Notes: generated by a model not told the origin, from the letters alone. Shown: positions 1-43,367, numbered from the stretch's first letter. The stretch: DNA of 64,000 nucleotides from an uncultured virus (IMG/VR IMGVR_UViG_3300043080_000080) (IMGVR_UViG_3300043080_000080), one strand, 5' to 3'. Numbers and translations are program-made.

Positions 1-3000
1 CTGAAGATTCATCTGATAATGTACAAGAACAAACTGTACTTCCTTACACATATTGGAGTGACCTTCAGGCTACTAATCTAACTACATTCAGCGATAAATT
101 AACCAATACTATCAATACCCCGTTACAGATTGTTGAGAATGTTGTTAATGCTGCTGCAGACTCTATGGATGATGTACAGTCTTGGATTGTTAATCGTCTT
201 AGTGCTGTTAGTGAATTCATTACTGATCCTACAGGAAAAATAATTGAATGGATTACTACAGATACTTCGACAACTAATAATAATCCTGGAACTACTAAAA
301 CCACTACTAATACTTCTAAAACATCTTCTGCTACTAAGGTTAAGACTAGCACTACATCTACATCTTCTTCTAGCAAGAAATCTAGTTCTAGCAGTAGTTC
401 TTCTACTGGATTGATCTCTAAAGTAAAGAGCTTCTTCTCTAACCTGTTTGGTACAGGAGCACAATATGGGATGGGCTATTCTAAACAGATTGACCCATCA
501 ATATCTTCTATTAGATTTAATGCTGGTGGAGATAGTGAATACCAAACTATTGGCGATTCTGGTTGTGGTCCTGCAGCGGCAGTAAATGCTCTAGAAGCTA
601 TGTATGGTAGAGGTTCTAATGTAGTAAGCGCAGCTCAGTATGCTATCTCTCGTGGTTATAAAGAGAGAAATGGAGGAACAATGCCTGGATTCTTCGGGGA
701 TTATTTCTCTAGAAATGGTTATGCTTCTCAGACCACATCTAATAAGAGTACATTAGCCACTAACATCAGAGCAGGATTACCTACAGTATTAATGGGTACA
801 GATTCTAATGGTGTATCTTCTAGAACTCCTTATGGAACCAGCCCTCACTACGTTACTGCAACAGGTGTTGATTCTAACGGCCATGTTATTATACAAGATC
901 CGGAGTCTAAGTATGATAACCAGCTCTATTCAATCAATGACGTTCTTAGTAAGACAAGCTTTGGTGTTTCTGCTATGGGCAAGTATGGTCGTGGTAGGCG
1001 TACTAGTCGTACTGTATTTGGACGTGGTAGGGATGTTCTCAACCAGGATCTTTGTACATGGGCAGATGTAACAGCAGATGAGCTCAATAGCTGGATGGCT
1101 TCTTACAGAAGGACCAATAGTCCATTCTTAGGAAATGGTGCTCTATTTATAGAGATTGCTAATTCCACTGGAATGGATCCTGTGTATATTATTGCTCATG
1201 CAGCAAATGAGTCTGGATGGGGCAACTCTAATTATGCTGTAAATAGAGGTAACTATTTTGGTATTGGAGCATTTGATTCTAACCCTGATGCTGCATATAC
1301 ATTTACCACAAGTTCTACTAATAGTAATTTCCATCCTGAAGGATTACTCCAGGGAGTACAATGGATAAAGAAGAACTACTATGACTATGGTCAGACAACT
1401 CTTTATCTATATAATAATCCACCAGATGGATGGCATAACTATTCTACTGGAAACTGGGATACTGTTATATCCATCATGAATTCTTGTTATAATAGTATCT
1501 CTGGTTACGACACTCGTAAGAAGTATAAGCATACTGGAGATGGTTCCACTAGCGTATCTTCTAGCTCTAGCACTTCTACTAATTATAGCTCTACTGGAAC
1601 TACAAGTTCAACGTCTTCTAGTGGTTCTACTGGACTTATTGGTACTCTTAGTAATTTACTTGCTAACTCTAGAATTGGTCAAGCATTCTATAAACTCATC
1701 GGAGTTAGCGATAGTACTTCTAATAATACCTCTTCTAATACTTCCAGCAGTAGTTCCACTACTTCTACTACGTCATCTACTAATTTAACCAATACGGGCA
1801 ATGCATCCTTCCCCAAGTATAATCTTACCGATGATCAGATCAATGGTATTGCTAATATAGTTGGTCATGAGCAAGGGACAGAAGCAGGTTGGCTTGCAGA
1901 GGCATCTCTTATGGCTAACCGTACAGATATTAAGGGAGATCAGTATGCTACTCCTGAAAACTTGGTTAAACAGGTTACAGGAGGTTGGTTCGCATATGGT
2001 AGTAGTAGGTACAAGACTAGAGAAAGAACAAACTCTGGAACTGTAAATGCTGTTAAGACTGCTATTGTTGAAGGTAAGAGAACTGTTCCTAGATATATAA
2101 ATGAGCATGACTATATTGGCGATCTTACATCTGTAACTACAAACGGCAAATCTATTAGTGCTAGCAATAGAAGTGGTTATGTACAGCACCAGACTAAGAT
2201 TAAGAATAAGTATGGCTCTACATATACATTCTATTCATTCCCAAGCCCCACCAGTGATCCATTTGGTTATACTGATGATTCTTATCGTACTAAATGGGGC
2301 GATAGCCATTATGGTACTGGTAAATTCGGACGCGGTAAAGAAGAGAATGCTTCCAAGGTATGGTGGTATCTGAAAAAGAATGGTATGTCTGATAATGGTG
2401 CCGCTGGCATCTTAGGAAATCTTGAAGCGGAATCTGGTATTAGCCCAACTAACCTTCAGAATTCGTATGAAACAATTCTTGGTTATACTGATGACTCTTA
2501 TACTCAGGCTGTAGACGATGGGACTTATACTAATTTTGCAGATGATTCTGCAGGATATGGTATTGCTCAGTTTACTTATAATGCATATAAGAAAGCATTG
2601 CTTGCTAGAGCTAAGAATAGAAACAAATCTATTGGTTCTCTGACTAACCAGACTGAGTATCTGACTGAGTATGTTAAGGGTAGTATGAGTAGCCTCTGGA
2701 ACTCTCTGCTTAATGCGTCTGATCCTTCTGCTGCCGCTACTTTATTCCTTACACAGTATGAAAAGCCCACTGACCAAAGTACTTCTGTTAAGAATTATAG
2801 AGGAAAATTGGCTAAAGCATGGTACACCAAGCTTACTGGCACTGAAGGAACCGAGTTGGATGATGCTGATACTACATCTTCTTCTGATAGTTCTACCGCT
2901 TCCGATAGTACAACTACAACAACTACTAATGCTGTAAGTTCTTCTACTGGATTGATTGGAACTCTTAGTGATTTGCTTACTAACTCTAGAGTTGGTCAAG

Positions 3001-4355
3001 CTTTCTACAAGCTTATAGGTGTTACTAATTCTAATAACACTACTACCTCTTCCACAAGCAGCACAAGTTATAGTGGTACCACAAGTAGTTCTGTTGATGC
3101 AAGTGGAGATGCGGCTGCATTGGTTAAGGTTGCCGAAAATGAGATTGGATATACAGAGAAAGCGTCTAATGCTAATCTTGATGATGCAACTGCCAATGCT
3201 GGTTCTAATGATTATACTAAGTATGGCGAGTATACTGGCGCTAATGGCGCTCCATGGTGTGCATCCTTTATATCATGGTGCGCTAATCAAGCTGGAATAA
3301 GTACTGATGTAATTCCTAAGACAGCAGCTGCCGCTACTCTTAGAAATGCTTCTTCTACCCATCCAACACCACAAAATGCAACTGCTGGAGATTTTATTAC
3401 TTACGACTATAGTAATGACGGTACAGTCGATCATGTTAGTTTGGTTGAAAGTAGAAATGACACTGGCCTTACTGCCATTGATGGTAACTGGAATAACAGG
3501 GTAGAAAGAGTAACGCATAAGTTTAGTGATGGTACTTCCACTTGGACTATTACTAGGCCTAATTATGCTAATACTATTAGAGATACATCTACTACTGAAG
3601 AGGCTGATACAATTTCTAATGTAGTTGATAAATCTAATACTACATCTTCTTCCATACTAGACAAAGCACTGTCTGTTGTAGGAACAACTGGTACAAAATC
3701 AACGTCCACCACTAGTACAAGCACTACAAAATCAACAGGCACAAATCTAAGAGATAGTAGCAATAGTAATTCTACTTTAGGATCTAATACTATTGGCTCA
3801 TCGCTTATAAATAAAGCTTCTGTTCTAGGAACTGGAGGAAACAACAATAAGCCGCTGGCAAGATTCGGTAGATTCAAGAATGCTACTAACGGTAGAGGCT
3901 CAATATACAGTGTGAAATATAATACTATCAGAGATGCATTTGGTAATATTATAGGTACTACTGAAACTAGTATTGAAGATCAGGAGATTGCTGCACAGCA
4001 TAGAGGCAACAGTGGTTATGGTCGTGGTACTGTACAGTATGGCATGGCTACAACTAGAGATTATAGCAATCTTATTGATTCTATTATCACAGTTCTCTAT
4101 ACTATCGCAGATAATACCGATAAGCTGAATGTAATTGTTACCATACTTAATAATAAGCTTGGTACTAATATTACATCTTCAGATGTAGCAGAAGCAACTA
4201 ACTCAAATTCAAGTTTGCTGAAAGAGAAATTACAGAGTACCCTTACAGGAAATGCTGTTTCTCAAGCTTCTAAATTAAATTCTATTGCTGATGAACTTGG
4301 AGATTCCTCCATAACCTCCATAATATCGGCAATGAATGCTATTGCATCTGAATAA
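1..4355 (+). CDS. C-terminal part of giant tail-associated multi-domain peptidoglycan hydrolase (tape-measure/tail lysin type): C39-like peptidase, GH73 glucosaminidase, SleB-like, phage tail lysozyme, CHAP
   Basis: Frame of ORF 165..4355 is open back to nt 3, so the gene starts before the window. Motifs: SGCGP...PHYV...IQDP (C39_2); AHAANESGWG..NYFGIGAFDSNP (GH73); IANIVGHEQG..EASLMANR (SleB-like); AAGILGNLEAESG..GYGIAQFT..YEKP (tail lysozyme); PWCASFISWC..DHVSLV..IDGN (CHAP); S/T-rich linkers. Confidence 0.85.
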   Translation, partial: EDSSDNVQEQTVLPYTYWSDLQATNLTTFSDKLTNTINTPLQIVENVVNAAADSMDDVQSWIVNRLSAVSEFITDPTGKIIEWITTDTSTTNNNPGTTKTTTNTSKTSSATKVKTSTTSTSSSSKKSSSSSSSSTGLISKVKSFFSNLFGTGAQYGMGYSKQIDPSISSIRFNAGGDSEYQTIGDSGCGPAAAVNALEAMYGRGSNVVSAAQYAISRGYKERNGGTMPGFFGDYFSRNGYASQTTSNKSTLATNIRAGLPTVLMGTDSNGVSSRTPYGTSPHYVTATGVDSNGHVIIQDPESKYDNQLYSINDVLSKTSFGVSAMGKYGRGRRTSRTVFGRGRDVLNQDLCTWADVTADELNSWMASYRRTNSPFLGNGALFIEIANSTGMDPVYIIAHAANESGWGNSNYAVNRGNYFGIGAFDSNPDAAYTFTTSSTNSNFHPEGLLQGVQWIKKNYYDYGQTTLYLYNNPPDGWHNYSTGNWDTVISIMNSCYNSISGYDTRKKYKHTGDGSTSVSSSSSTSTNYSSTGTTSSTSSSGSTGLIGTLSNLLANSRIGQAFYKLIGVSDSTSNNTSSNTSSSSSTTSTTSSTNLTNTGNASFPKYNLTDDQINGIANIVGHEQGTEAGWLAEASLMANRTDIKGDQYATPENLVKQVTGGWFAYGSSRYKTRERTNSGTVNAVKTAIVEGKRTVPRYINEHDYIGDLTSVTTNGKSISASNRSGYVQHQTKIKNKYGSTYTFYSFPSPTSDPFGYTDDSYRTKWGDSHYGTGKFGRGKEENASKVWWYLKKNGMSDNGAAGILGNLEAESGISPTNLQNSYETILGYTDDSYTQAVDDGTYTNFADDSAGYGIAQFTYNAYKKALLARAKNRNKSIGSLTNQTEYLTEYVKGSMSSLWNSLLNASDPSAAATLFLTQYEKPTDQSTSVKNYRGKLAKAWYTKLTGTEGTELDDADTTSSSDSSTASDSTTTTTTNAVSSSTGLIGTLSDLLTNSRVGQAFYKLIGVTNSNNTTTSSTSSTSYSGTTSSSVDASGDAAALVKVAENEIGYTEKASNANLDDATANAGSNDYTKYGEYTGANGAPWCASFISWCANQAGISTDVIPKTAAAATLRNASSTHPTPQNATAGDFITYDYSNDGTVDHVSLVESRNDTGLTAIDGNWNNRVERVTHKFSDGTSTWTITRPNYANTIRDTSTTEEADTISNVVDKSNTTSSSILDKALSVVGTTGTKSTSTTSTSTTKSTGTNLRDSSNSNSTLGSNTIGSSLINKASVLGTGGNNNKPLARFGRFKNATNGRGSIYSVKYNTIRDAFGNIIGTTETSIEDQEIAAQHRGNSGYGRGTVQYGMATTRDYSNLIDSIITVLYTIADNTDKLNVIVTILNNKLGTNITSSDVAEATNSNSSLLKEKLQSTLTGNAVSQASKLNSIADELGDSSITSIISAMNAIASE
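1626..3023 (+). repeat. Intragenic 27-aa duplicated segment (1626-1706 and 2943-3023)
   Basis: STGLIGTLSNLLANSRIGQAFYKLIGV vs STGLIGTLSDLLTNSRVGQAFYKLIGV, 24/27 identical. Confidence 0.9.
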
Positions 4356-4385: not shown

Positions 4386-4425
4386 TACATACTAATAAAA
4401 ATCACTATATCCGGAGGTGGATTAT

Positions 4426-6456
4426 ATGGCTAAAACAGAAGTACAGAATAACCTTCTGTATTTACTATATGGTGGAAGTGGTGGATCTATAAGCTGTGAT
4501 TTTGATGGCTACACAACTGTATCTGGCCGCCATGAGGGTATAGACTGTGTTAAATCAGAAGGATCTGATATATACGCCATAAGCAGTGGCACAATTATAT
4601 CTGTAACCAGACCAGCATCTTCTAGTTCAACATCAACACTATTTGTGTATGATTCTACAAATGATAAAACTGTGTGCTATATGCACTCTAATTTTGATAG
4701 TAATCTTGCTGTAGGACAAACTATTACAGCTGGAACTCATATTGGTACTGAAGGGGCAAATGGTAATGTAACAGGGCCACATACGCATGTAGAAGTACTT
4801 AACGGTAAAAGGGCTTATGCGTCTAAATCTGTTAACGATAGCACATTAGATAACTCAGACCCGTATACAACGTATTGGAATGGATTATTATCTAATGGTG
4901 TTACTGGAGTTACATTCACTGATAGTTCTGGTAGTAGTAGTTCTACTAGCATAAATTTAGATGATGGTATAGAGGTTTCTGATTGGTCGGTTGATGATTC
5001 ATTTACTCAATCATATCTTATATCTAATCCTACGGAAGAAGAGTACACTAATAATTTATCATCGTCTCTTAGAATAACAGATATCCGTGGTATCTTAGGA
5101 GTTCCTCATCAATTCTTACCGTCAGCAGATGCTAGAATTAGTACAGCTTCAGGAGCCGGAGATGTTGGTGATCTAGGCAGAGTATATACAGATAAAATTA
5201 TCAAACAGATTCCATTATTACTTATAACTCCAGGAACTCCGCAATTCATGGCAGGTTACTCAAAAGATCAGAAAGCTACAGCTATTGCTAATCTATTTCC
5301 AGATGGTGGTACAGAAGACGATCTTGACTCATTGGTTAATGATACTTCTGGCAAGTACTATACATTAAAATTTGCTTATACTGATTATTATGAGTATCTT
5401 AATGAGATGCTGCGTTCTGCAGCTATCCTATTAGAGATAGAGGATTTTGAAATAGAATCTGGAAAAAAGCTTGGATCTTATAACTGGATGAACCATACTA
5501 CTAGCGGTGGAGATGATACTGAAACTACCATATTTGGTTCATCTGGATTATCTGCTTTTCTTGGGCCATACGCTGGATGCATTGCAGCATACGCAGACTG
5601 TGGTAATACGGTAGATGATTCCTTTAGAAATGATACATCCAATTCTCAGCTAGCTTCGGCTATTAATAGTCTATCAGATCAAGGTAGAGAGTTAAACTTC
5701 TTGATTGGTAATGTAGGTGGCCAAGCAGGATTAAAGTTAGACGCATTAGCAGGTGGTTTAGGAGTAGACGCTGCTGTTAGCACTGTAGCCGACGGAATAG
5801 ACTCTCTGTTAGGAAATAATAATATCTTCTCTAATATTCTTAATAAAACTTCTACTATACTTGCGGGTGGTAGAATGGTATTCCCAAAGATATGGTCAGA
5901 GTCATCATTCTCTAGATCTTATGGAGTTAAGATGAAATTAGTATCTCCATCTGGAGATAAGGTTTCTGTATTCTTGAATATATTAGTACCAATATACCAC
6001 ATATTAGCACTCACATTACCAAGACAATCAGAAGGTCAGACATACTTTTCACCATTCTTAGTTCGTGCATACTCTAAGTCTTTATTCAACGTAGATATGG
6101 GATTGATAACAAACTTATCTATATCTAAAGGCGCAGAAGGAGAATGGACTCAAGATGGCTTACCAACAGTAGCAGATGTATCTTTTGATATTGAAGATCT
6201 ATATGACAACATGTTTATGTCATCTGCAGCCGCTCAGGGTACATTTACCGGAATAATGAGTAATATTACTGAACTTGATTATATTGCTAACTCATGTGGT
6301 GTTAATATAAACGACCATGAAATAGCAAGAACCATTCAGCTATATACTGCATTGACAGCTGGATCTATTAAGGATAGAATCCAGATCGGAATATTTGGTA
6401 AGATACAACAGTGGTGCAGCCAGAAGATACAAAACATATTCGGTATGTTTTCTTAA
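4426..6456 (+). CDS. M23 peptidase fused to virion/baseplate structural domain
   Basis: HEGID...YMH...TGPHTHVE is the M23 motif set; C-terminal part (GLITNLSISKG..WT.DGLP..DVSF.IEDLY) resembles tube/baseplate proteins; GGAGG RBS favours ATG 4426. Confidence 0.7.
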   Translation: MAKTEVQNNLLYLLYGGSGGSISCDFDGYTTVSGRHEGIDCVKSEGSDIYAISSGTIISVTRPASSSSTSTLFVYDSTNDKTVCYMHSNFDSNLAVGQTITAGTHIGTEGANGNVTGPHTHVEVLNGKRAYASKSVNDSTLDNSDPYTTYWNGLLSNGVTGVTFTDSSGSSSSTSINLDDGIEVSDWSVDDSFTQSYLISNPTEEEYTNNLSSSLRITDIRGILGVPHQFLPSADARISTASGAGDVGDLGRVYTDKIIKQIPLLLITPGTPQFMAGYSKDQKATAIANLFPDGGTEDDLDSLVNDTSGKYYTLKFAYTDYYEYLNEMLRSAAILLEIEDFEIESGKKLGSYNWMNHTTSGGDDTETTIFGSSGLSAFLGPYAGCIAAYADCGNTVDDSFRNDTSNSQLASAINSLSDQGRELNFLIGNVGGQAGLKLDALAGGLGVDAAVSTVADGIDSLLGNNNIFSNILNKTSTILAGGRMVFPKIWSESSFSRSYGVKMKLVSPSGDKVSVFLNILVPIYHILALTLPRQSEGQTYFSPFLVRAYSKSLFNVDMGLITNLSISKGAEGEWTQDGLPTVADVSFDIEDLYDNMFMSSAAAQGTFTGIMSNITELDYIANSCGVNINDHEIARTIQLYTALTAGSIKDRIQIGIFGKIQQWCSQKIQNIFGMFS

Positions 6457-19868: not shown

Positions 19869-20306
19869 ATGGTTCTGAATTTAGAATATTATGACAGCAC
19901 TAGAGAACACCAGCACAAAGCAATAATGGAGTCATCTGTAGAAGATTCTGTAAATCAGTGTATGAAAAAATATGATAAAATAAAAAATTCAGATGACCCA
20001 AACACAATAAAATCATGGATGAAGTATGCTCTTCAGATTACTATACCATCAATAGCAGTTGCAGCTGCAGGAGGGGAAGGACTTGCAATTGTAATAGCAG
20101 CTTTTATGGCACTTTTAGGAAGACCTGGAACTAAAATTAGAAATAAAAATTATTTGCTTATGCTAGAAAATGAAATAAATGAATGTATTGATAAAGTGGA
20201 AAGAGACAAAAAAGCTACAGATAAGCAAAAGCTGCAAGCCGTATCACAATTAAAAAAATTAAAATATAATGTTCATATGGAATTACACGCACTTGGTTGT
20301 CTGTAA
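19869..20306 (+). CDS. small membrane-hairpin virion protein (paralog A)
   Basis: GGAGG RBS before ATG 19869; MVLNLEYY..IMES leader; hydrophobic hairpin ending LLGRPG. Confidence 0.6.
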   Translation: MVLNLEYYDSTREHQHKAIMESSVEDSVNQCMKKYDKIKNSDDPNTIKSWMKYALQITIPSIAVAAAGGEGLAIVIAAFMALLGRPGTKIRNKNYLLMLENEINECIDKVERDKKATDKQKLQAVSQLKKLKYNVHMELHALGCL

Positions 20307-20335: not shown

Positions 20336-20845
20336 ATGGTTTTAAATTTAGAGTATTACAGTGATGATGAGGGCGTTCGTAACCGCGTGCTTATAGAGTC
20401 AGCATTAGACGATATAGAAAAACACAGATATAAATATAAGCAAATTAAAGACTCAAATAATGAGAGTGAATTACGATCATGGATAGTATATTCTTTGAAT
20501 GTAATTATACCACTTGCACTTGATATTGGGCTTTCATTATCTGGATCCTACCTAGCTGGTATATGGGCAGAGGTATATGCTATATACGCCATACTTATAG
20601 GCAGACCTGGTTCAGTTAACCATAAATTAGCTCACATGTATATGCTTTATAACAACGTCAACAAATCTATTAGGAAAGTAGAAAAAGATAAAAGAGCTAA
20701 CGCTAAAGAAAAACAAAAAGCATTATCTGATTTGCGTAAATTTAGAGCTAAAGTAGAGAAAGATGTGAAAGACCTTAGTTATAGGTCTGATGAGTTAGGA
20801 GCTTCCGCTATGGTAAAGAGGGAGAGTGCAAGGTACATATGGTAA
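20336..20845 (+). CDS. small membrane-hairpin virion protein (paralog B)
   Basis: AAGGAG RBS before ATG 20336; MVLNLEYY..LIES leader; LIGRPG; aligns with previous gene. Confidence 0.6.
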   Translation: MVLNLEYYSDDEGVRNRVLIESALDDIEKHRYKYKQIKDSNNESELRSWIVYSLNVIIPLALDIGLSLSGSYLAGIWAEVYAIYAILIGRPGSVNHKLAHMYMLYNNVNKSIRKVEKDKRANAKEKQKALSDLRKFRAKVEKDVKDLSYRSDELGASAMVKRESARYIW

Positions 20846-22148: not shown

Positions 22149-22209
22149 TTATTTCAAATTATACATGCGTGGACTTAAAAGTAATTTTACTTTAATGGGA
22201 GGAATCATA

Positions 22210-23067
22210 ATGAGCACTAATCTTATGGATAAATACTTTAAAACTATCGTTTGTAATGTAGAGCGTAATGGAACAAAAGATATTAACCCAAGACCAAAAT
22301 ATGAAGACGGTACTCCAGCGCATACATATTCAATTAATCATGCAACCATGACTTTCGATTTATCTAAGGGAGAATTCCCGGCTCTTACTTTAAGACCGAT
22401 TGCATTTAAATCTTCTATTAAAGAAATTCTATGGATTTATAAAGATCAATCTAACGATCTTAAATTGCTAAGAGATAAATATGGTGTTCATTGGTGGGAC
22501 CAATGGGCATTAGATGACGATACTATTGGGCAGTGTTATGGTGCTTCTGTAAGAAGACATCATTTAATGGATAATCTTTTAGATGGATTAGAGAAAGAAC
22601 CAGATGGAAGAAGGCATATTATGTCTCTTTGGCAAGATGAAGACTTTAAAGAACCCCATGCACTAAAGCCATGCTGTTTTATGACTATATGGAATATCCG
22701 TCATGAAGAAGACGGAGATTATTTAGATATGATGATGATTCAAAGATCTTGTGATTTCATGCTTGCAGGATCTACATCAAACCAGGTTCAGTATGCTACA
22801 TTGTTGTGCATGGTTGCTCACCATCTGGGAATTACTCCCGGTAAGTATACATGGGTCGGAGATAACGTGCAAATCTATGATAGGCATTTTGCTCAGGCTA
22901 ACGAGATGCTTAGTAGAAAGCTCATACCGTGTGAGTGTTATATTAAGATTAATCCAGAAAAGAAAACCTTCTGGGATATTGATGTAGATGATATTGAACT
23001 TATTGGTTATCCTTTATCTACCGTAAAAGAGGTTAATCCTCAGCTTAAGTTTGATATTGGTATTTAA
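22210..23067 (+). CDS. thyA: thymidylate synthase ThyA
   Basis: EILWIY, WDQW, GRRHIMSLW, LKPCC (catalytic Cys), QRSCD, N..QY; GGAGG RBS before ATG 22210. Confidence 0.95.
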   Translation: MSTNLMDKYFKTIVCNVERNGTKDINPRPKYEDGTPAHTYSINHATMTFDLSKGEFPALTLRPIAFKSSIKEILWIYKDQSNDLKLLRDKYGVHWWDQWALDDDTIGQCYGASVRRHHLMDNLLDGLEKEPDGRRHIMSLWQDEDFKEPHALKPCCFMTIWNIRHEEDGDYLDMMMIQRSCDFMLAGSTSNQVQYATLLCMVAHHLGITPGKYTWVGDNVQIYDRHFAQANEMLSRKLIPCECYIKINPEKKTFWDIDVDDIELIGYPLSTVKEVNPQLKFDIGI

Positions 23068-23081
23068 TACATATTAGAGGA

Positions 23082-24074
23082 GTGATGGTGATGAAATTAT
23101 TATCAAAGCTTTTCCATAATAACACTAGTAAAGATAATAAAACTAAAATTAAATCAGATGATGATTTTCTAAATACTCAAGTTCTTATCAATGGTATAAA
23201 TAATTTTGTAATTCTTATTTCATTTACTGAAAATTATTTCCATGATATGATTGAGTTTCTTGCGGTGTGTACAGATATAAATAAGAATGAGGTTCTATGG
23301 CATGGCGATGTAAAATACGTTCATACATCTTATGATGAAGAAACCGATAATAAAGATACCCATGATGATACAATCTATATAGTTCATAATCGGTATTATT
23401 TATTAATCGGTGGGGATGATAGTTTCTATAGACATCTGTTTAGATATTCAGATAATCTAGCAAATTCTATATTAATGGCTCTTATTCCTGAGATTGTTGA
23501 GAATAGAGATCCATCGTGGTATAAAGATCTTATCAATGATAAAGTAATCGTGGATAAATTTAAGCACGTAAATTCTTATGATCAATATTATGGGGATATA
23601 GAATCCCCCGATAAATTATATAAGTACGCAGATGCTAAACTATTGATGAGCAAATTGCCAGATTGCTTTACAATATACGATATACTGCCAATTATTTGGT
23701 TTAAAGATGTGTATGAATCTTACGCATATAAGAACGTATACAATCTTATGTGCAAAACCGTAACAGCATATGTAGTTAATAAATTAGCCTATAGACATCA
23801 ATTAGATATGCTCAATACAATACTTGGTGGTTTGATAGATAATATCACATATGATACTTTGGTATACTTAACGGGGCCAAAGTATAAAATAGAGTATGGA
23901 GAAGCAATGCCTGGAGATGTAACGGATGAATCTCTAGATGAACTATTTAGACAGAAGTACGAATCTGTTGGTGTATTTAAATCTAATGACGTAGAATACA
24001 CTGATATAGACGAGACATTATCAGATGAGCCAGTATATGATGGTAACACAAATACCCCCGAAGGAGATGTTTAG
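23082..24074 (+). CDS. hypothetical protein
   Basis: 330-aa ORF with GAGGAG RBS between thyA and dut. Confidence 0.65.
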   Translation: MMVMKLLSKLFHNNTSKDNKTKIKSDDDFLNTQVLINGINNFVILISFTENYFHDMIEFLAVCTDINKNEVLWHGDVKYVHTSYDEETDNKDTHDDTIYIVHNRYYLLIGGDDSFYRHLFRYSDNLANSILMALIPEIVENRDPSWYKDLINDKVIVDKFKHVNSYDQYYGDIESPDKLYKYADAKLLMSKLPDCFTIYDILPIIWFKDVYESYAYKNVYNLMCKTVTAYVVNKLAYRHQLDMLNTILGGLIDNITYDTLVYLTGPKYKIEYGEAMPGDVTDESLDELFRQKYESVGVFKSNDVEYTDIDETLSDEPVYDGNTNTPEGDV

Positions 24075-24079
24075 TAATT

Positions 24080-24838
24080 ATGGAAACCAATGTTAGAACA
24101 GTAGTAGAACCAACGTATAGCATGATTAATGAAATAGATGCTACATGCAAGATATTGGCAAACCAAGTAGCAGGCATTAAGAATGATGCAAAATACTCTA
24201 CAGCAATGATTGGTGCATTAGACAAACGGCTAGACAATTATAAAGAGGAAGCCGAAGCTAAATATACCACCATTAGTAATCGCGATGAGTTAATCCGTAT
24301 TCATTACATATCTGATGAGATCCCTGAGATTAAGCTTAAAGAATCTGGTGACTGGGTTGATCTATATGCTAGCGAGGATGTTATTATCCCTGTCAATCAG
24401 CAGAAGATGGTTCCTCTAGGAATATCTATGTGCTTACCATGTGGTTATGAGGCTTATATTGTTCCTAGAAGTTCTACATTTAAGAACTATGGAATTATCA
24501 TGACGAACCACCATGGTATTGTAGATTCTTCTTACTGTGGTACTAATGACCAATGGATGTTTTCAGCATATTGTCTGTCCCCCAAAGAAGATGGACTATA
24601 TATTGACGAGTCTGATTCTTGGTTATTTGGTTTTCTTGCTGATAGACCGTGGGGGCAGTGGATTCTACGCCATTTCTGTAGGTCTAAGTATAACGCCCAT
24701 AGATATAGCATGGTTCACAAGGGCGATAGAATCTGCCAATTCAGAATTCAAGAGCATATGCCCGCTGTCAAGTTTATGAAGGTTTCTGAATTAAGCGAAA
24801 TTGATCGTGGAGGATTTGGTTCTACCGGAGTGCGTTAA
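24080..24838 (+). CDS. dut: trimeric dUTPase with N-terminal extension
   Basis: GDWVDL, PRSS, GIVDSSYCG, KGDRICQF, RGGFGSTG (motifs I-V). Confidence 0.93.
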   Translation: METNVRTVVEPTYSMINEIDATCKILANQVAGIKNDAKYSTAMIGALDKRLDNYKEEAEAKYTTISNRDELIRIHYISDEIPEIKLKESGDWVDLYASEDVIIPVNQQKMVPLGISMCLPCGYEAYIVPRSSTFKNYGIIMTNHHGIVDSSYCGTNDQWMFSAYCLSPKEDGLYIDESDSWLFGFLADRPWGQWILRHFCRSKYNAHRYSMVHKGDRICQFRIQEHMPAVKFMKVSELSEIDRGGFGSTGVR

Positions 24839-25629: not shown

Positions 25630-25729
25630 TACATAATCCCTGGTAGGATGCCCTACCAGGGGTATTTTTGCCCTTATATTTAGTAATGAAATGTAACATT
25701 TTAGTAAATTACTTAAAGGAGGTAATTTT

Positions 25730-26275
25730 ATGCCGTTCGTTAAAGATTCTATGTCCTTACTTATAGAATCTGCAGACATTGATCTTAAGAATAGTATGGA
25801 TATGGTAGTCCGAGAGAGTACCGTACTTTCCACATATGCTAGTCTTGAATCTGTATCTAGTCCTGTCGTGTATACTGCAGAGATGGTACCTGTAGTGTGC
25901 GTAGACGAGGAGTATTATACAGAGATGAGTTTTCTGCATCCTTACATGGAATCTAATGGTATCAGAAATATTGCTGACGCATTAGACAATGTTGCTTACG
26001 TTAATGGGTTAAGTGAGAATGCTGTTGGATTGCTTATTGAATCTGATCAGTATGTCACTGATGCTATTAATGAGGCTATAGATTCTGGTTCTGAGAAGAA
26101 GAAAAAGAAGGCTATCTCTAAGGTTAACAAATCTAATAAGATTGTTGATAAACTTAAGAATGCCGGAATTAAAGTAAAGAAGAAATTCAGCAAAGAACCT
26201 AAGAAGAAGTGCGATGAAGAGTGCACTGAAACCGAGTGTGGAACCAACGAATGTGGTTCCCAGAAATGTAGATAA
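25730..26275 (+). CDS. putative head-associated protein, Lys-rich with Cys/Glu tail
   Basis: AAAGGAGG RBS, late motif 25695-25706, repeated IES/RES/LES/MES sites. Confidence 0.55.
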   Translation: MPFVKDSMSLLIESADIDLKNSMDMVVRESTVLSTYASLESVSSPVVYTAEMVPVVCVDEEYYTEMSFLHPYMESNGIRNIADALDNVAYVNGLSENAVGLLIESDQYVTDAINEAIDSGSEKKKKKAISKVNKSNKIVDKLKNAGIKVKKKFSKEPKKKCDEECTETECGTNECGSQKCR

Positions 26276-26289
26276 GTAGGGTACTTGGT

Positions 26290-26805
26290 ATGGTTCTTAC
26301 TTTTTATTATGATGAATCTTATGTTAATTATCCTAGTTATCATTACAATAATGACCCAGAATTATTCGACGATGCTTATGAGAGAAATTTTTATAGCAAC
26401 CGCCAAAACAGACAATTTACCCCTTTAACTGTTACTGAAGTGCCAGGTGTTAATACCGATGCATTAGAGCGTAGGGTTGATGAAGTTGGGTCTAAGATAT
26501 CTAGTAAGTTTTGGCAAGCTGGACATCATAATAACCCGCAAAGGGATTTCCCATTTAAATGTTATAGGATTGTAAATGGGTTTGAGTTTGATATTAAAAA
26601 ATACAGAGAACTTGTGTTATCCCACCTTAATGGGGCAGAAAAACGCAATTTTAAAGTATACCAATATAACTTTCAGAAAAAGAATCGTAGATATTCTACT
26701 ATAATCATAACAGCAAATGGTAATGTTAAAGCCATATATCTAATGATTTATGAAGAACCAAAAACATGGAGAAATATTAGATTAACTAATGATTTACTTA
26801 AATAA
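26290..26805 (+). CDS. hypothetical protein with MVL..Y..ES leader
   Basis: MVLTFYYDES N-terminus resembles neighbours' leaders. Confidence 0.6.
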   Translation: MVLTFYYDESYVNYPSYHYNNDPELFDDAYERNFYSNRQNRQFTPLTVTEVPGVNTDALERRVDEVGSKISSKFWQAGHHNNPQRDFPFKCYRIVNGFEFDIKKYRELVLSHLNGAEKRNFKVYQYNFQKKNRRYSTIIITANGNVKAIYLMIYEEPKTWRNIRLTNDLLK

Positions 26806-26831
26806 TTATATTATATAAAGGAGCGATACCT

Positions 26832-27277
26832 ATGGTACTTGATGTATATACCCCCCCCCCCTAATTATGAATGAGGCTAGAACTGCCGAAGAATATAAGC
26901 GTCAAAAATATGCAGAAAAGCGTAAAGAAACTGCTAAAGAGCGTAATAGAGATAATAGAAGATACTACTACTCTGCTGGCAGTACGCCTGCCGGTATACC
27001 TGGTATGGAGAATAATTATTTCACCGCTAATGGTGGTAAAAATAAAAAAGATGCTAACAAAAATCACACCTGGGGTAAGCATTATAGAATGCGCGATAAA
27101 ACTGAGGATAAAAAAATACAAGCTGATGGTTATAGAACTATAGCTCGTGCTGATATTATAGATCACAAATTTAAAAATAGACAAGATAAAGCTGCTGCTT
27201 ATGATGCGGCAAATCGTCATAACAGACGGCACCCAGATCGTAAGCTTGAATCTGGTATCTTTGGTGTAACTTACTAA
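26832..27277 (+). pseudogene. basic internal-protein-like cassette 1, out of frame at C11 tract (phase OFF)
   Basis: AAAGGAG RBS, ATG 26832 GTA CTT GAT GTA TAT A-C11-TAA gives MVLDVYTPPP*; C9 or C12 would fuse to ORF 26867..27277. Confidence 0.8.
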
Positions 27278-27986
27278 ACTAATTTAAAGGAGAAATTACT
27301 ATGGTATTAGATGTATATACCCCCCCCCTGGAGATGTATAATGAGGAATATTATTTAGATGAGGCTAGAACCGCTGCTGAATATAGAAGCCAGAAAGCTA
27401 GATCTGCTAGAGATGCAGAACGAGCAGAAGATAAGCGTTTTAAAAACAGATACGTACATGACGGTGAGGATTTTGATAACAGAATAGGAGTAAATGACGA
27501 TAACGGGTTTAGATCAAGCAACAGAAACGGCAGATCCAAAACCAAGGCCGCTTCTGATTCGATTTCAAATTCTAGAAAACGCTCTAAGGTTAACGCGACA
27601 TGTTACAGACCATCTGATGGTTTTGACAGTATGATGTTGGCCAAAGATGTAGCTGCAAAACGTGTTAGAAGTAATAAAAATGCTAACTATGCTTCAGATG
27701 CAGTAGATCGTCATAATCGTAGACACCCTAATAGTTCTGTTAAATCAATATACCTTGATGCAGATGATAAAACAATAAGATCTGGATCTGGTATAAGTTC
27801 TTATGAGGCGCTTGACGGAATAGTGGCAGCCAGCGGACGTCACGATGCTAAAAAATCAAGAGAGCATATAGAGCGTAAAGCTAAATCTAAGCATGAATCT
27901 GCCGGAACTGGTATCTTTGGTGTAACTTACTAAAATAAATTTAAAGGAGAAATTACTATGGTACTTGATGTATATACCCCCCCCCT
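27252..27986 (+). repeat. ~78-bp direct junction repeats (27252-27329 and 27908-27986)
   Basis: CTGGTATCTTTGGTGTAACTTACTAAA..AATTTAAAGGAGAAATTACTATGGTA.T.GATGTATATAC9 occurs twice, near-identical. Confidence 0.9.
27301..27933 (+). CDS. basic internal-protein-like cassette 2 (C9, in frame)
   Basis: MVLDVYTPPL..DEARTAAEY...RHNRRHP...HESAGTGIFGVTY; AAAGGAG RBS. Confidence 0.85.
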   Translation: MVLDVYTPPLEMYNEEYYLDEARTAAEYRSQKARSARDAERAEDKRFKNRYVHDGEDFDNRIGVNDDNGFRSSNRNGRSKTKAASDSISNSRKRSKVNATCYRPSDGFDSMMLAKDVAAKRVRSNKNANYASDAVDRHNRRHPNSSVKSIYLDADDKTIRSGSGISSYEALDGIVAASGRHDAKKSREHIERKAKSKHESAGTGIFGVTY

Positions 27987-28371
27987 AATTATGAATGAAG
28001 CACGTACTGCTGATTAATACGCTCGCCAAAAATACGCAGAAAATCGTAAAGAAACTACTAAACAGCGTAATAGGGATAAAAGAAGGTATCAAACTGTTAA
28101 TGACAATTTAATGTCTGGAAAACCTCTTACTACTGTAAAGACTTCAAATTACTTTGACGCTGCAGATAAGAATAAAAAAGAGTATGATTATGATGAGTAT
28201 AAAAAAGCAGCTAGAGATAAGACCGGTGGTTCAAATACCTACTTTAGCAGAAAATACAAATCAAAATCAGATGCTGCTTATGCAGATGATGCTATATGGC
28301 GTCACAATAGACGCCACCCAGATCGTAAGCTCGAATCTGCTGGTACTGGGATCTTTGGTGTAAAATACTAA
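27958..28371 (+). pseudogene. basic internal-protein-like cassette 3 (C9 in frame, premature TAA at 28015-28017)
   Basis: MVLDVYTPPLIMNEARTAD*YARQKYAENRKE.. continues in frame into ORF 28111..28371; paralogs have GAA at the stop position. Confidence 0.8.
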
Positions 28372-28375
28372 AACT

Positions 28376-28407
28376 AACATCCTCTAGGGTTGCCCCTAGA
28401 GGATGTT
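28376..28407. terminator. Bidirectional hairpin terminator
   Basis: AACATCCTCTAGGG-TTGC-CCCTAGAGGATGTT between convergent genes. Confidence 0.8.
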
Positions 28408-42936: not shown

Positions 42937-43155
42937 TCAGAATGGTGAGCTCAGGATCGCCGTTCTTATCGGTTTCGTCTTCGACGACGATAGCCTTAAA
43001 ATCAGCGATCTTGTCATTGACATCATCGTCACCAACGATGTCAATTGCGGTCGGAGTCTTGTCCATGTACGTACGTCCAAACAGGTAGCCGCCAGCGTAG
43101 GAAAGAGCGATGCCACTGCGTATGCGTTGATGATCTTCTTTGTTGTTGCCTTCAT
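42937..43155 (-). CDS. small protein with N-terminal hydrophobic segment
   Basis: GGAGG RBS before MKATTKKIIN..; early motif 43210-43227. Confidence 0.65.
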   Translation of the reverse strand: MKATTKKIINAYAVASLFPTLAATCLDVRTWTRLRPQLTSLVTMMSMTRSLILRLSSSKTKPIRTAILSSPF

Positions 43156-43280: not shown

Positions 43281-43367
43281 GCCGGTATGATGGAATAGGC
43301 AGACATCGCGGACTTAAAATCCGCTGGTAGTAATACCGTTCCGGTTCGAGCCCGGATACCGGCACCA
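43281..43367 (+). tRNA. trnL: tRNA-Leu (anticodon UAA) with encoded CCA
   Basis: GCCGGTA/TACCGGC acceptor stem, GCGGA-CTTAAAA-TCCGC anticodon arm, long variable arm, GGTTCGAG T-loop, 3' ACCA. Confidence 0.95.

Follow-up and report, generated by a model that had tools for sequence, protein, structure and literature searches.

The internal proteins of bacteriophage T4 are described as diverse, with the capsid-targeting sequence (CTS) as their sole common part (PMC3012670). The propeptides of T4 are given a length of 10-20 residues, with Alt cleaved at ITE-6, and the SPN3US paralogs gp53 and gp54 are described as having identical N-termini (PMC5694885). In the Fletchervirus phages of Campylobacter, hypermutable polyG tracts (7-11 G) have been reported in receptor-binding genes (Sorensen et al. 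2021, cited in 10.1101/2025.10.21.683753), and coliphages T2 and T4 have been reported to carry contingency loci (Gomez, Barrick and Waters, bioRxiv 2025; 10.1101/2025.10.21.683753). Here we analyse a 64,000-nucleotide (64-kb) stretch of DNA, referred to below as the window, from an uncultured virus (IMG/VR IMGVR_UViG_3300043080_000080), which is an uncultivated jumbo phage. The locus in question consists of three tandem paralogous genes for small basic proteins whose N-terminal leaders each contain a long run of C. We tentatively read these runs as a contingency-type switch that would couple and uncouple a CTS-like leader in three internal-protein-like paralogs, and we give this reading somewhat less than an even chance of being correct.

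The three genes lie on the + strand and begin alike, with ATG GTA YTW GAT GTA TAT A followed by the C-run, from leader start codons at 26832 (copy 1), 27301 (copy 2) and 27958 (copy 3). In all three the tract begins 19 nt after the start codon. Copy 1 has eleven C (C11, 26851-26861), a length of 3n+2 that brings a TAA into frame, copy 2 has C9 (27320-27328), which is in frame and codes for T-P-P-L, and copy 3 has C9 (27977-27985), also in frame. A preliminary description of this DNA had given the common gene start and the lengths and positions of the tracts, and these were recovered exactly. Each leader ATG is preceded at a distance of 8 nt by the Shine-Dalgarno (SD) sequence AAGGAG (26818..26823, 27287..27292 and 27944..27949, all on the + strand). 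The block formed by the SD, the leader and the C-run is 78-93% identical between the copies, while their bodies are barely alignable as DNA, and the shared 20-mer (at most 3 mismatches) occurs 3 times in the window against an expectation of 0.09. A homopolymer of about eight or more nucleotides in the 5' coding region or the promoter is a mark of contingency loci, and it is present here as C11, C9 and C9.

On both strands of the 64 kb, no C or G run other than these tracts reaches six, and the longest of the others is five, which agrees with the earlier remark that no other such C runs had been noticed in the window. According to the run-length table, A runs are never longer than seven and T runs never longer than six. 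Homopolymers are generally avoided in the window, and therefore the three C-runs stand out further. For independent and identically distributed bases, 0.011 C runs and 0.009 G runs of at least nine would be expected. When C7 was searched for on both strands, it turned up at the three tracts and nowhere else, against a shuffle mean of 0.52, and 0 of 100 shuffles reach the observed number. The tracts have also been kept against codon and composition bias, as is typical of contingency loci. In 38 other open reading frames (ORFs; 16,459 codons), CCC accounts for 35 of the 436 Pro codons (8%) and ACC for 137 of the 1141 Thr codons (12%), and none of the five Pro-Pro pairs is written CCCCCC. The Thr-Pro-Pro-Leu of the leader could be encoded without a C-run, as had been pointed out. 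Copy 2 retains its run despite a synonymous change in the adjacent Leu codon (CTT vs TTA). Copies 1 and 3 have identical flanks and differ by two C, which indicates that the tract length has changed at least once.

As in a contingency locus, the reading frame is opened or closed by the length of the tract: C11 gives the peptide MVLDVYTPPP followed by a stop, and C9 gives a fused ORF. In copy 1 the leader ORF (26832..26864, +) ends with the TAA at 26862-26864 and is uncoupled from the body, just as the preliminary description had it. The body is a 136-aa ORF (26867..27277, +; P0004) reading MNEARTAEEY...RHNRRHPDRKLESGIFGVTY in the -1 frame relative to the leader. Copy 2 (27301..27933, +; 210 aa) is the only intact leader-fused gene and is represented by P0003 from independent Logan assemblies. 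In copy 3 (27958..28371, +; P0005 and P0006) the leader is in frame and the ORF is broken by one in-frame TAA (28015-28017, +), where the sibling allele P0006 has Glu. As read, copy 3 gives MVLDVYTPPLIMNEARTAD and a stop, after which the frame is open and conserved to 28371. The earlier statement that copies 2 and 3 are in frame is therefore correct for the tracts, both C9, but it missed the TAA that stops copy 3. Only copy 2 is intact, because the frame of copy 1 is uncoupled by C11 and copy 3 is stopped by the TAA.

P0006, the intact allele of copy 3 in the protein collection, is found on 5 contigs. Over the 126 covered codons it differs from copy 3 at two, both non-synonymous, namely Glu to stop (28015-28017) and Lys to Asn (codon 29), and the last 86 residues are identical. 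All three paralogs terminate with TAA. The proteins are basic, as had been noted from the start, with isoelectric points of 9.1-10.0, and their middles are highly variable (29-36% identity). Reassignment or suppression of the stop codon at the copy 3 TAA was considered and rejected. A suppressor tRNA was sought in the window and none was found, the sole tRNA there being tRNA-Leu(UAA) (43281-43367, +). Also, the paralogs themselves end in TAA, and under translation table 11 ORFs as long as 1396, 1141 and 852 aa remain open and intact.

The outcome of each tract phase can be read from the flanking bases. A length of 3n fuses leader and body in copies 1, 2 and 3. A length of 3n+2 leads in copies 1 and 3 to an immediate TAA, 2 nt before the internal ATG, and in copy 2 to a stop after 9 codons. 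A length of 3n+1 leads in copies 1 and 3 to P-N-Y-E and a stop, with the TGA lying over body codons 2-3, and in copy 2 to a stop after 4 codons. The third phase of copy 1 stops at the TGA at 26872-26874. In copies 1 and 3 both off-phases stop at TAA 26862 or TGA 26872, within 5 nt of ATG 26867. Since each off-phase stops beside the internal ATG, re-initiation and a leaderless product are conceivable in these two copies; the geometry proposed earlier for re-initiation, with ATG 26867 two nucleotides past the TAA, is indeed present. The use of gene-call length to deduce the tract phase was considered and dropped. P0001 (199 aa, JGI) begins at the internal Met of copy 2 and misses the in-frame leader, which shows that gene-call starts are unreliable. 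A related 1,961-bp contig carries a trio made up of P0007, called from MNE, P0002, whose in-frame leader has TPP, and P0008, whose leader lacks it.

For this unnamed family of small basic proteins, a profile search among 1.84 billion representatives returned 38 proteins at E<=1e-3. The family alignment comprises 30 members. P0001 and P0005 were left out because they are parts of the genes of the window itself, as were the short fragments P0021, P0022, P0025, P0031, P0038 and P0039 and the long P0036. P0009 (759 aa, 12 matched stretches) is a low-complexity false positive and was discarded. The three copies have no match in Pfam or PHROGs. Among 27 relatives scanned, the lone PHROG match, P0019 to phrog_20905 (E 0.0025), is weak and was taken as chance, and a search of the ESM Atlas with the family gave no usable match. 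AlphaFold2, run with the 30-row alignment, gives a weak model with three helical stretches and the remainder disordered (predicted local distance difference test 62, predicted template modelling score 0.27).

In the 30 aligned members the N-terminal peptide is variable, hydrophobic or aromatic, and about 6-20 residues long. In every one of them an invariant Glu closes it, and the next residue is Ala in 9 and Gly in 21. Two positions before the Glu, all 30 have a hydrophobic residue (Leu/Ile in 22, Met in 4, Phe in 2, Tyr in 1 and Val in 1). The junction is followed by a conserved helix, x-Q-A-E-E-Y-K-x-R-K, then by the variable basic middle and the C-terminal motif D-A-x-x-R-H-x-R-R-H-P ... 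E-S-(G)-I-F. Because a conserved, mature-looking start sits behind very different upstream peptides, the junction resembles a proteolytic maturation site.

In IMG/VR relatives the module is embedded in longer proteins or polyproteins. At L007 4449-5417 two modules are separated by an acidic linker ending IIIE/GEQAEEY (the slash marks the junction), and the following gene has a homologous 58-residue acidic N-terminus ending ILVE/GEQAEAY. In L009 the module lies within a 642-aa protein. Over L007 4449-6254, which belongs to contig G001, there are three modules, arranged as the two-module polyprotein and the gene with the linker-homologous acidic propeptide; in the window the three are separate genes. 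The C-terminal tail of some members is similar to the N-terminal leader (for instance, in P0010, SIFKNINFLNE vs VIFNSINFIN). This likeness and the module arrangement in G001 suggest that the single genes descended from a repeat polyprotein.

The leader is not confined to the three copies. MVL opens 37 of the 2,981 ATG codons of the window, and the real gene starts among these are 19869, 20336, 26290 and the three copies. All six gene starts fit MVL-x-hydrophobic-(E)Y, and their codons differ synonymously. The 145-aa gene at 19869..20306 (+) starts MVLNLEYYDS and has an unrelated body; it and its 169-aa paralog at 20336..20845 (+), which starts MVLNLEYYSDDEG, have no Pfam match. The 171-aa gene just 5' of copy 1 (26290..26805, +) starts MVLTFYYDES, has an unrelated body and no C-run, and has no Pfam or PHROG match. 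P0008, a paralog from a relative, has the leader MVLDVYYLNEA, without T-P-P, whereas copies 1 and 3 read MVLDVY-TPPLIM-NEA and copy 2 reads MVLDVY-TPPLEMYNEE-YYLDEA. By comparison with P0008, the C-run and its ATG appear to have been inserted into a canonical leader, in these basic paralogs only.

In G001 (207,861 bp), the N-terminal residues 2-7 of all SD-preceded ATG ORFs were grouped without prior bias. The largest group comprises 8 genes with MIYS(I/L)xE-like starts, namely MIYSLSE, MIYSLNE, MIYSITE (the module gene), MIYSINE, MIFRINE, MIYTVNE, MVVSITE and MIYKLND, against at most 3 per group at four internal control offsets. The genes (27177+, 58629+, 71036+, 78269+, 81361-, 83429-, 109629+ and 117623+) are otherwise unrelated and have good ribosome-binding sites. 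Their leader codons differ synonymously, which indicates that the constraint acts on the peptide. The module family thus has the leader MIYSI.E in G001 and MVLDVY... in the window phage, each of which is also found on unrelated genes, and a short N-terminal peptide common to unrelated proteins of one phage, as expected of a CTS, is present in both. When the leader proteins of G001 are compared with the window, the module protein alone of the 8 has a match, and 4 window proteins have no match in G001 and G003. G001 also encodes a T4-type prohead protease, Peptidase_S77 (PF03420; 183663-184139, -; 54.4 bits, cut-off 27). The phage-specific shared leader, the E/A or E/G junction and the protease of G001 are in keeping with the T4 design, and the leader is most probably a CTS-like targeting or propeptide signal, with cleavage and packaging predicted from these features. 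The leader genes of G001, taken with its Peptidase_S77, provide a candidate list of packaged proteins for that uncultivated jumbo phage.

Under the proposed switch, each paralog would be translated from a strong ribosome-binding site with the house leader of the phage (MVL-x-hydrophobic-Y...). Like the T4 capsid-targeting sequence, the leader would draw the protein into the prohead and would then be removed by a T4-type prohead protease. The C9-C11 runs would slip at replication, and at a length of 3n leader and body would be coupled. At 3n+1 or 3n+2 the leader ORF would end 0-4 codons on in copies 1 and 3, and 4 or 9 codons on in copy 2, near an internal ATG. A paralog in an off-phase would be switched off, or possibly made leaderless through re-initiation. 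In its present state the locus would have copy 2 coupled, copy 1 uncoupled (C11), and copy 3 coupled but killed by a separate nonsense change. We infer the cleavage, the packaging, the slippage within the population and the selective benefit. A more far-reaching version, which we regard as improbable, is that hypermutable C-runs in the leader let each of three ejected internal proteins toggle on its own between being packaged and being unpackaged or absent, so that up to eight cargo types would be made per burst as a bet-hedge. If this were true, the host defences concerned would be either blocked or triggered by these proteins.

Several observations weigh against the switch. The variability of the tracts is predicted from the general behaviour of homopolymers. 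Copy 3 is broken by a nonsense codon and not by its tract. Two of the three copies are defective, which would be expected also under relaxed selection on redundant paralogs, and the C11 of copy 1 could be a length miscall. The place of the family in virions is predicted, and no member has been seen in a virion. The packaging leader ending at E/A that had been proposed earlier agrees with the Glu-Ala/Gly in 30 of 30 members and with the Leu/Ile two residues before the Glu in 22 of them. Copies 1 and 3, however, depart from this with a Met in place of Leu or Ile. The operon neighbours are dUTPase and thymidylate synthase genes, not head genes, and none of the 52 ORFs of the 64-kb window is a prohead protease. 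In other contigs, the same N-terminal grouping gave no shared-leader group in G003, and the contig G004, which has a C10 described below, ends 56 nt from its own tract.

The alternative to which we give most weight, although we consider it unlikely, is passive decay, in which the tracts are real and mutable, and copies 1 (frameshift) and 3 (nonsense) are null alleles of redundant paralogs that are being lost, without any selected reversible switch. Two kinds of lesion in two of three copies, together with the highly variable protein middles (29-36% identity), would be natural under decay, and the nonsense break in copy 3 fits decay as well as it fits switching. The intact copy 3 allele on 5 other contigs further shows that nulls segregate in nature. 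On the other hand, the retention of a C-run in three diverged copies against 8% CCC use needs explaining, the frames of copies 1 and 3 are open and conserved but for one lesion each, and a restart ATG accompanies the C-run. It is still less likely that copy 1 is truly C9 (or C12), with all leaders in frame and the C-run merely coding for Pro-Pro. Long G/C homopolymers are prone to sequencing error, and the G004 contig breaks 56 nt from its C10. However, an assembly artefact would need an error of +2, not of +/-1, and it leaves the tracts as unexplained outliers. No homopolymer of six or more is present in any other coding region at the 8 gene junctions checked, which means that the assembly shows no general homopolymer-error signature, and the large ORFs (1396, 1141 and 852 aa) are intact.

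The two remaining explanations concern expression. MVLDVYTPPP and its stop could form a regulatory upstream ORF, a stalling leader peptide of 10 codons with Pro-Pro-Pro before the stop, governing the ATG 2 nt on, with copy 1 leaderless and unpackaged by fixed design. The order of a strong SD, a short ORF, TAA, 2 nt and ATG is what such a design would have, and termination after C-terminal prolines is poor. Also, the copy-1-like P0007 has been called from MNE while its neighbour gene on that contig has been called with the leader. Gene-call starts are unreliable, as P0001, called from an internal Met, illustrates, and the internal ATG has no preceding SD. We hold a fixed upstream ORF to be very unlikely. 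The least probable explanation in our view is programmed recoding, in which the ribosome would slip by -1 on C CCC CCC ahead of the TAA, or RNA polymerase would stutter on the run, and the leader and body of copy 1 would be rejoined at a set ratio with an additional Pro. The body of copy 1 is in the -1 frame, and the run is formally an X XXY YYZ slippery site with a stop codon in the A site. A downstream stimulatory RNA structure, as expected of a frameshift site, was sought against shuffles and none stands out (z = -0.16, +1.13 and +2.03 for copies 1, 2 and 3), and copies 2 and 3 carry the same run without need of a shift.

Related DNA bearing such tracts was sought in several collections. 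None was found among isolated phages (megablast and tblastn), in IMG/VR (DNA pattern and protein patterns), in JGI metagenome contigs (protein and DNA patterns) or in GTDB genome contigs. Six JGI loci returned by the DNA pattern (L001-L006) were rejected as chance matches. A locus search with one alignment (A5) found only the G001 and G002 loci. Related phages are likewise poor in long C or G runs, and neither G001 nor G002 contains a C8 or G8. In G003 (227 kb) the sole C or G run of at least eight is a G9 on the minus strand (43107-43115; about 1497-1505 in L011), located a few bases 5' of a minus-strand ATG, at the position of a ribosome-binding site. In G004 a single C10 (L010 57-66) precedes by 46 nt the ATG (112) of a family member of 293 aa starting MGFYNIILE/GQQAEEYK. 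This C10 lies directly 3' of a TTTTAAAACCACTTT motif, which is also found before G001 family genes (58568 and 59670). The promoter-like motif is not enriched in the window, where it occurs 3 times against 1.06 expected, a number reached by 7 of 100 shuffles. The C10 may be a second, promoter-proximal G/C tract tied to the family, or it may reflect an assembly break at the tract; the contig end 56 nt away suggests that such tracts trouble assemblers.

The window has a GC content of 36% (64% A+T). It encodes split multisubunit RNA-polymerase genes, a GroEL-like gene, a dUTPase, a thymidylate synthase, several virion structural protein families and a lysin. One of its RNA-polymerase subunits reaches at best 32% identity in tblastn against isolated phages (AR9/PBS1-like, Staphylococcus S6-like and Listeria LPJP1). 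The identity is 48% to the IMG/VR contigs G001 and G002 and 35% to G003. Isolated phages are therefore distant kin, and G001 and G002 are nearer. The AR9/PBS1/S6 group, to which the nearest isolated relatives belong, is known for uracil-DNA phages. A thymidylate synthase and a dUTPase-domain protein are encoded at 22165-24838 (+), and since both are present, the DNA of the window phage probably contains thymine. The lysin is a 1,396-aa protein (165-4355, +) with C39-like peptidase, glucosaminidase, tail-lysozyme and CHAP domains, and the gene after it encodes a 679-aa M23-peptidase virion protein (4417-6456, +). Such cell-wall-degrading sets are typical of phages with Gram-positive hosts.

The three paralogs are the last genes of a five-gene unit with terminator-like hairpins at both bounds, one upstream (25636..25663, +; 12 pairs followed by a T-run) and one at the operon end (28376..28407, +; 14 pairs followed by a T-run). 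The operon opens with a 181-aa gene (25730-26275, +) that has no family match. Its product has an acidic half with two LLIE/S motifs, followed by a stretch rich in Lys and a tail rich in Cys (CDEECTETECGTNECGSQKC), and it could be another protease-processed head protein.

Contingency loci of phages are already known, and what would be new here is their placement in a putative capsid-targeting leader, beside the newly delineated family and the shared-leader rule. If the tracts slip, the locus would be a contingency switch acting on the sorting signal of a virion cargo, not on a receptor-binding protein, and would provide a simple natural system for studying the role and diversification of the head-internal proteins of giant phages. 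Two results are independent of the switch. An unnamed basic-protein family without Pfam or PHROG assignment has been delineated in an uncultivated jumbo-phage clade (38 matches), and a short phage-specific N-terminal leader has been found on unrelated genes of one phage. The leader may be used as a handle to predict packaged or ejected proteins from sequence and perhaps, as with the T4 CTS, to load foreign proteins.

Among known systems, the internal proteins IPI, IPII, IPIII and Alt of T4 are, like the proteins of the window, small and basic with divergent bodies. As described, they too have in common only a short N-terminal peptide, with hydrophobic-x-Glu before Ala or Gly, and one leader is placed on several unrelated cargo proteins of one phage. 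The S77 prohead protease of G001, the nearest relative, adds to this likeness. In contrast, there is no homology between the T4 proteins and the window family, which has no Pfam or PHROG match and whose packaging and cleavage are predicted from sequence, and the leader sequence (MVLDVY... or MIYSI.E) is unlike the T4 CTS. To our knowledge, the T4 CTS has no homopolymer tract.

Gp53 and gp54 of SPN3US and the inner-body proteins of phiKZ are, in the published accounts, paralogous and abundant head-internal proteins of jumbo phages, with propeptides that are identical between diverged paralogs and a prohead protease that cuts after Glu (PMC5694885, PMC10052503). Their propeptides are mostly longer than 100 residues with the motif A/S/G-x-E, they have no homology to the window family, and no homopolymer switch is known for them. 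A literature search on such tracts found no paper that reports homopolymer switching in internal proteins of jumbo phages or in a leader for capsid targeting.

With regard to the tracts, the closest parallel is with Fletchervirus, where, as reported, long G/C homopolymers (7-11 nt, against 9-11 nt in the window) are likewise found in structural or virion-associated genes and changes in their length shift the frame, which would mix the progeny. The Fletchervirus tracts are placed in tail-fibre genes, whereas those of the window are in the leader of three tandem putative internal-protein paralogs. The off-phases in the window end beside a restart ATG, unlike those described for Fletchervirus, and its length variation is predicted from the tracts. 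The T2 and T4 loci rest on the same concept, in which the polymerase slips at simple repeats within phage genes and the phage thereby hedges its bets against host defence. As far as that account describes them, they are mostly short runs, from a scan that used homopolymers of at least six, whereas the window has 9-11 C in a putative sorting signal, against a 36% GC background in which other C or G runs stop at five.

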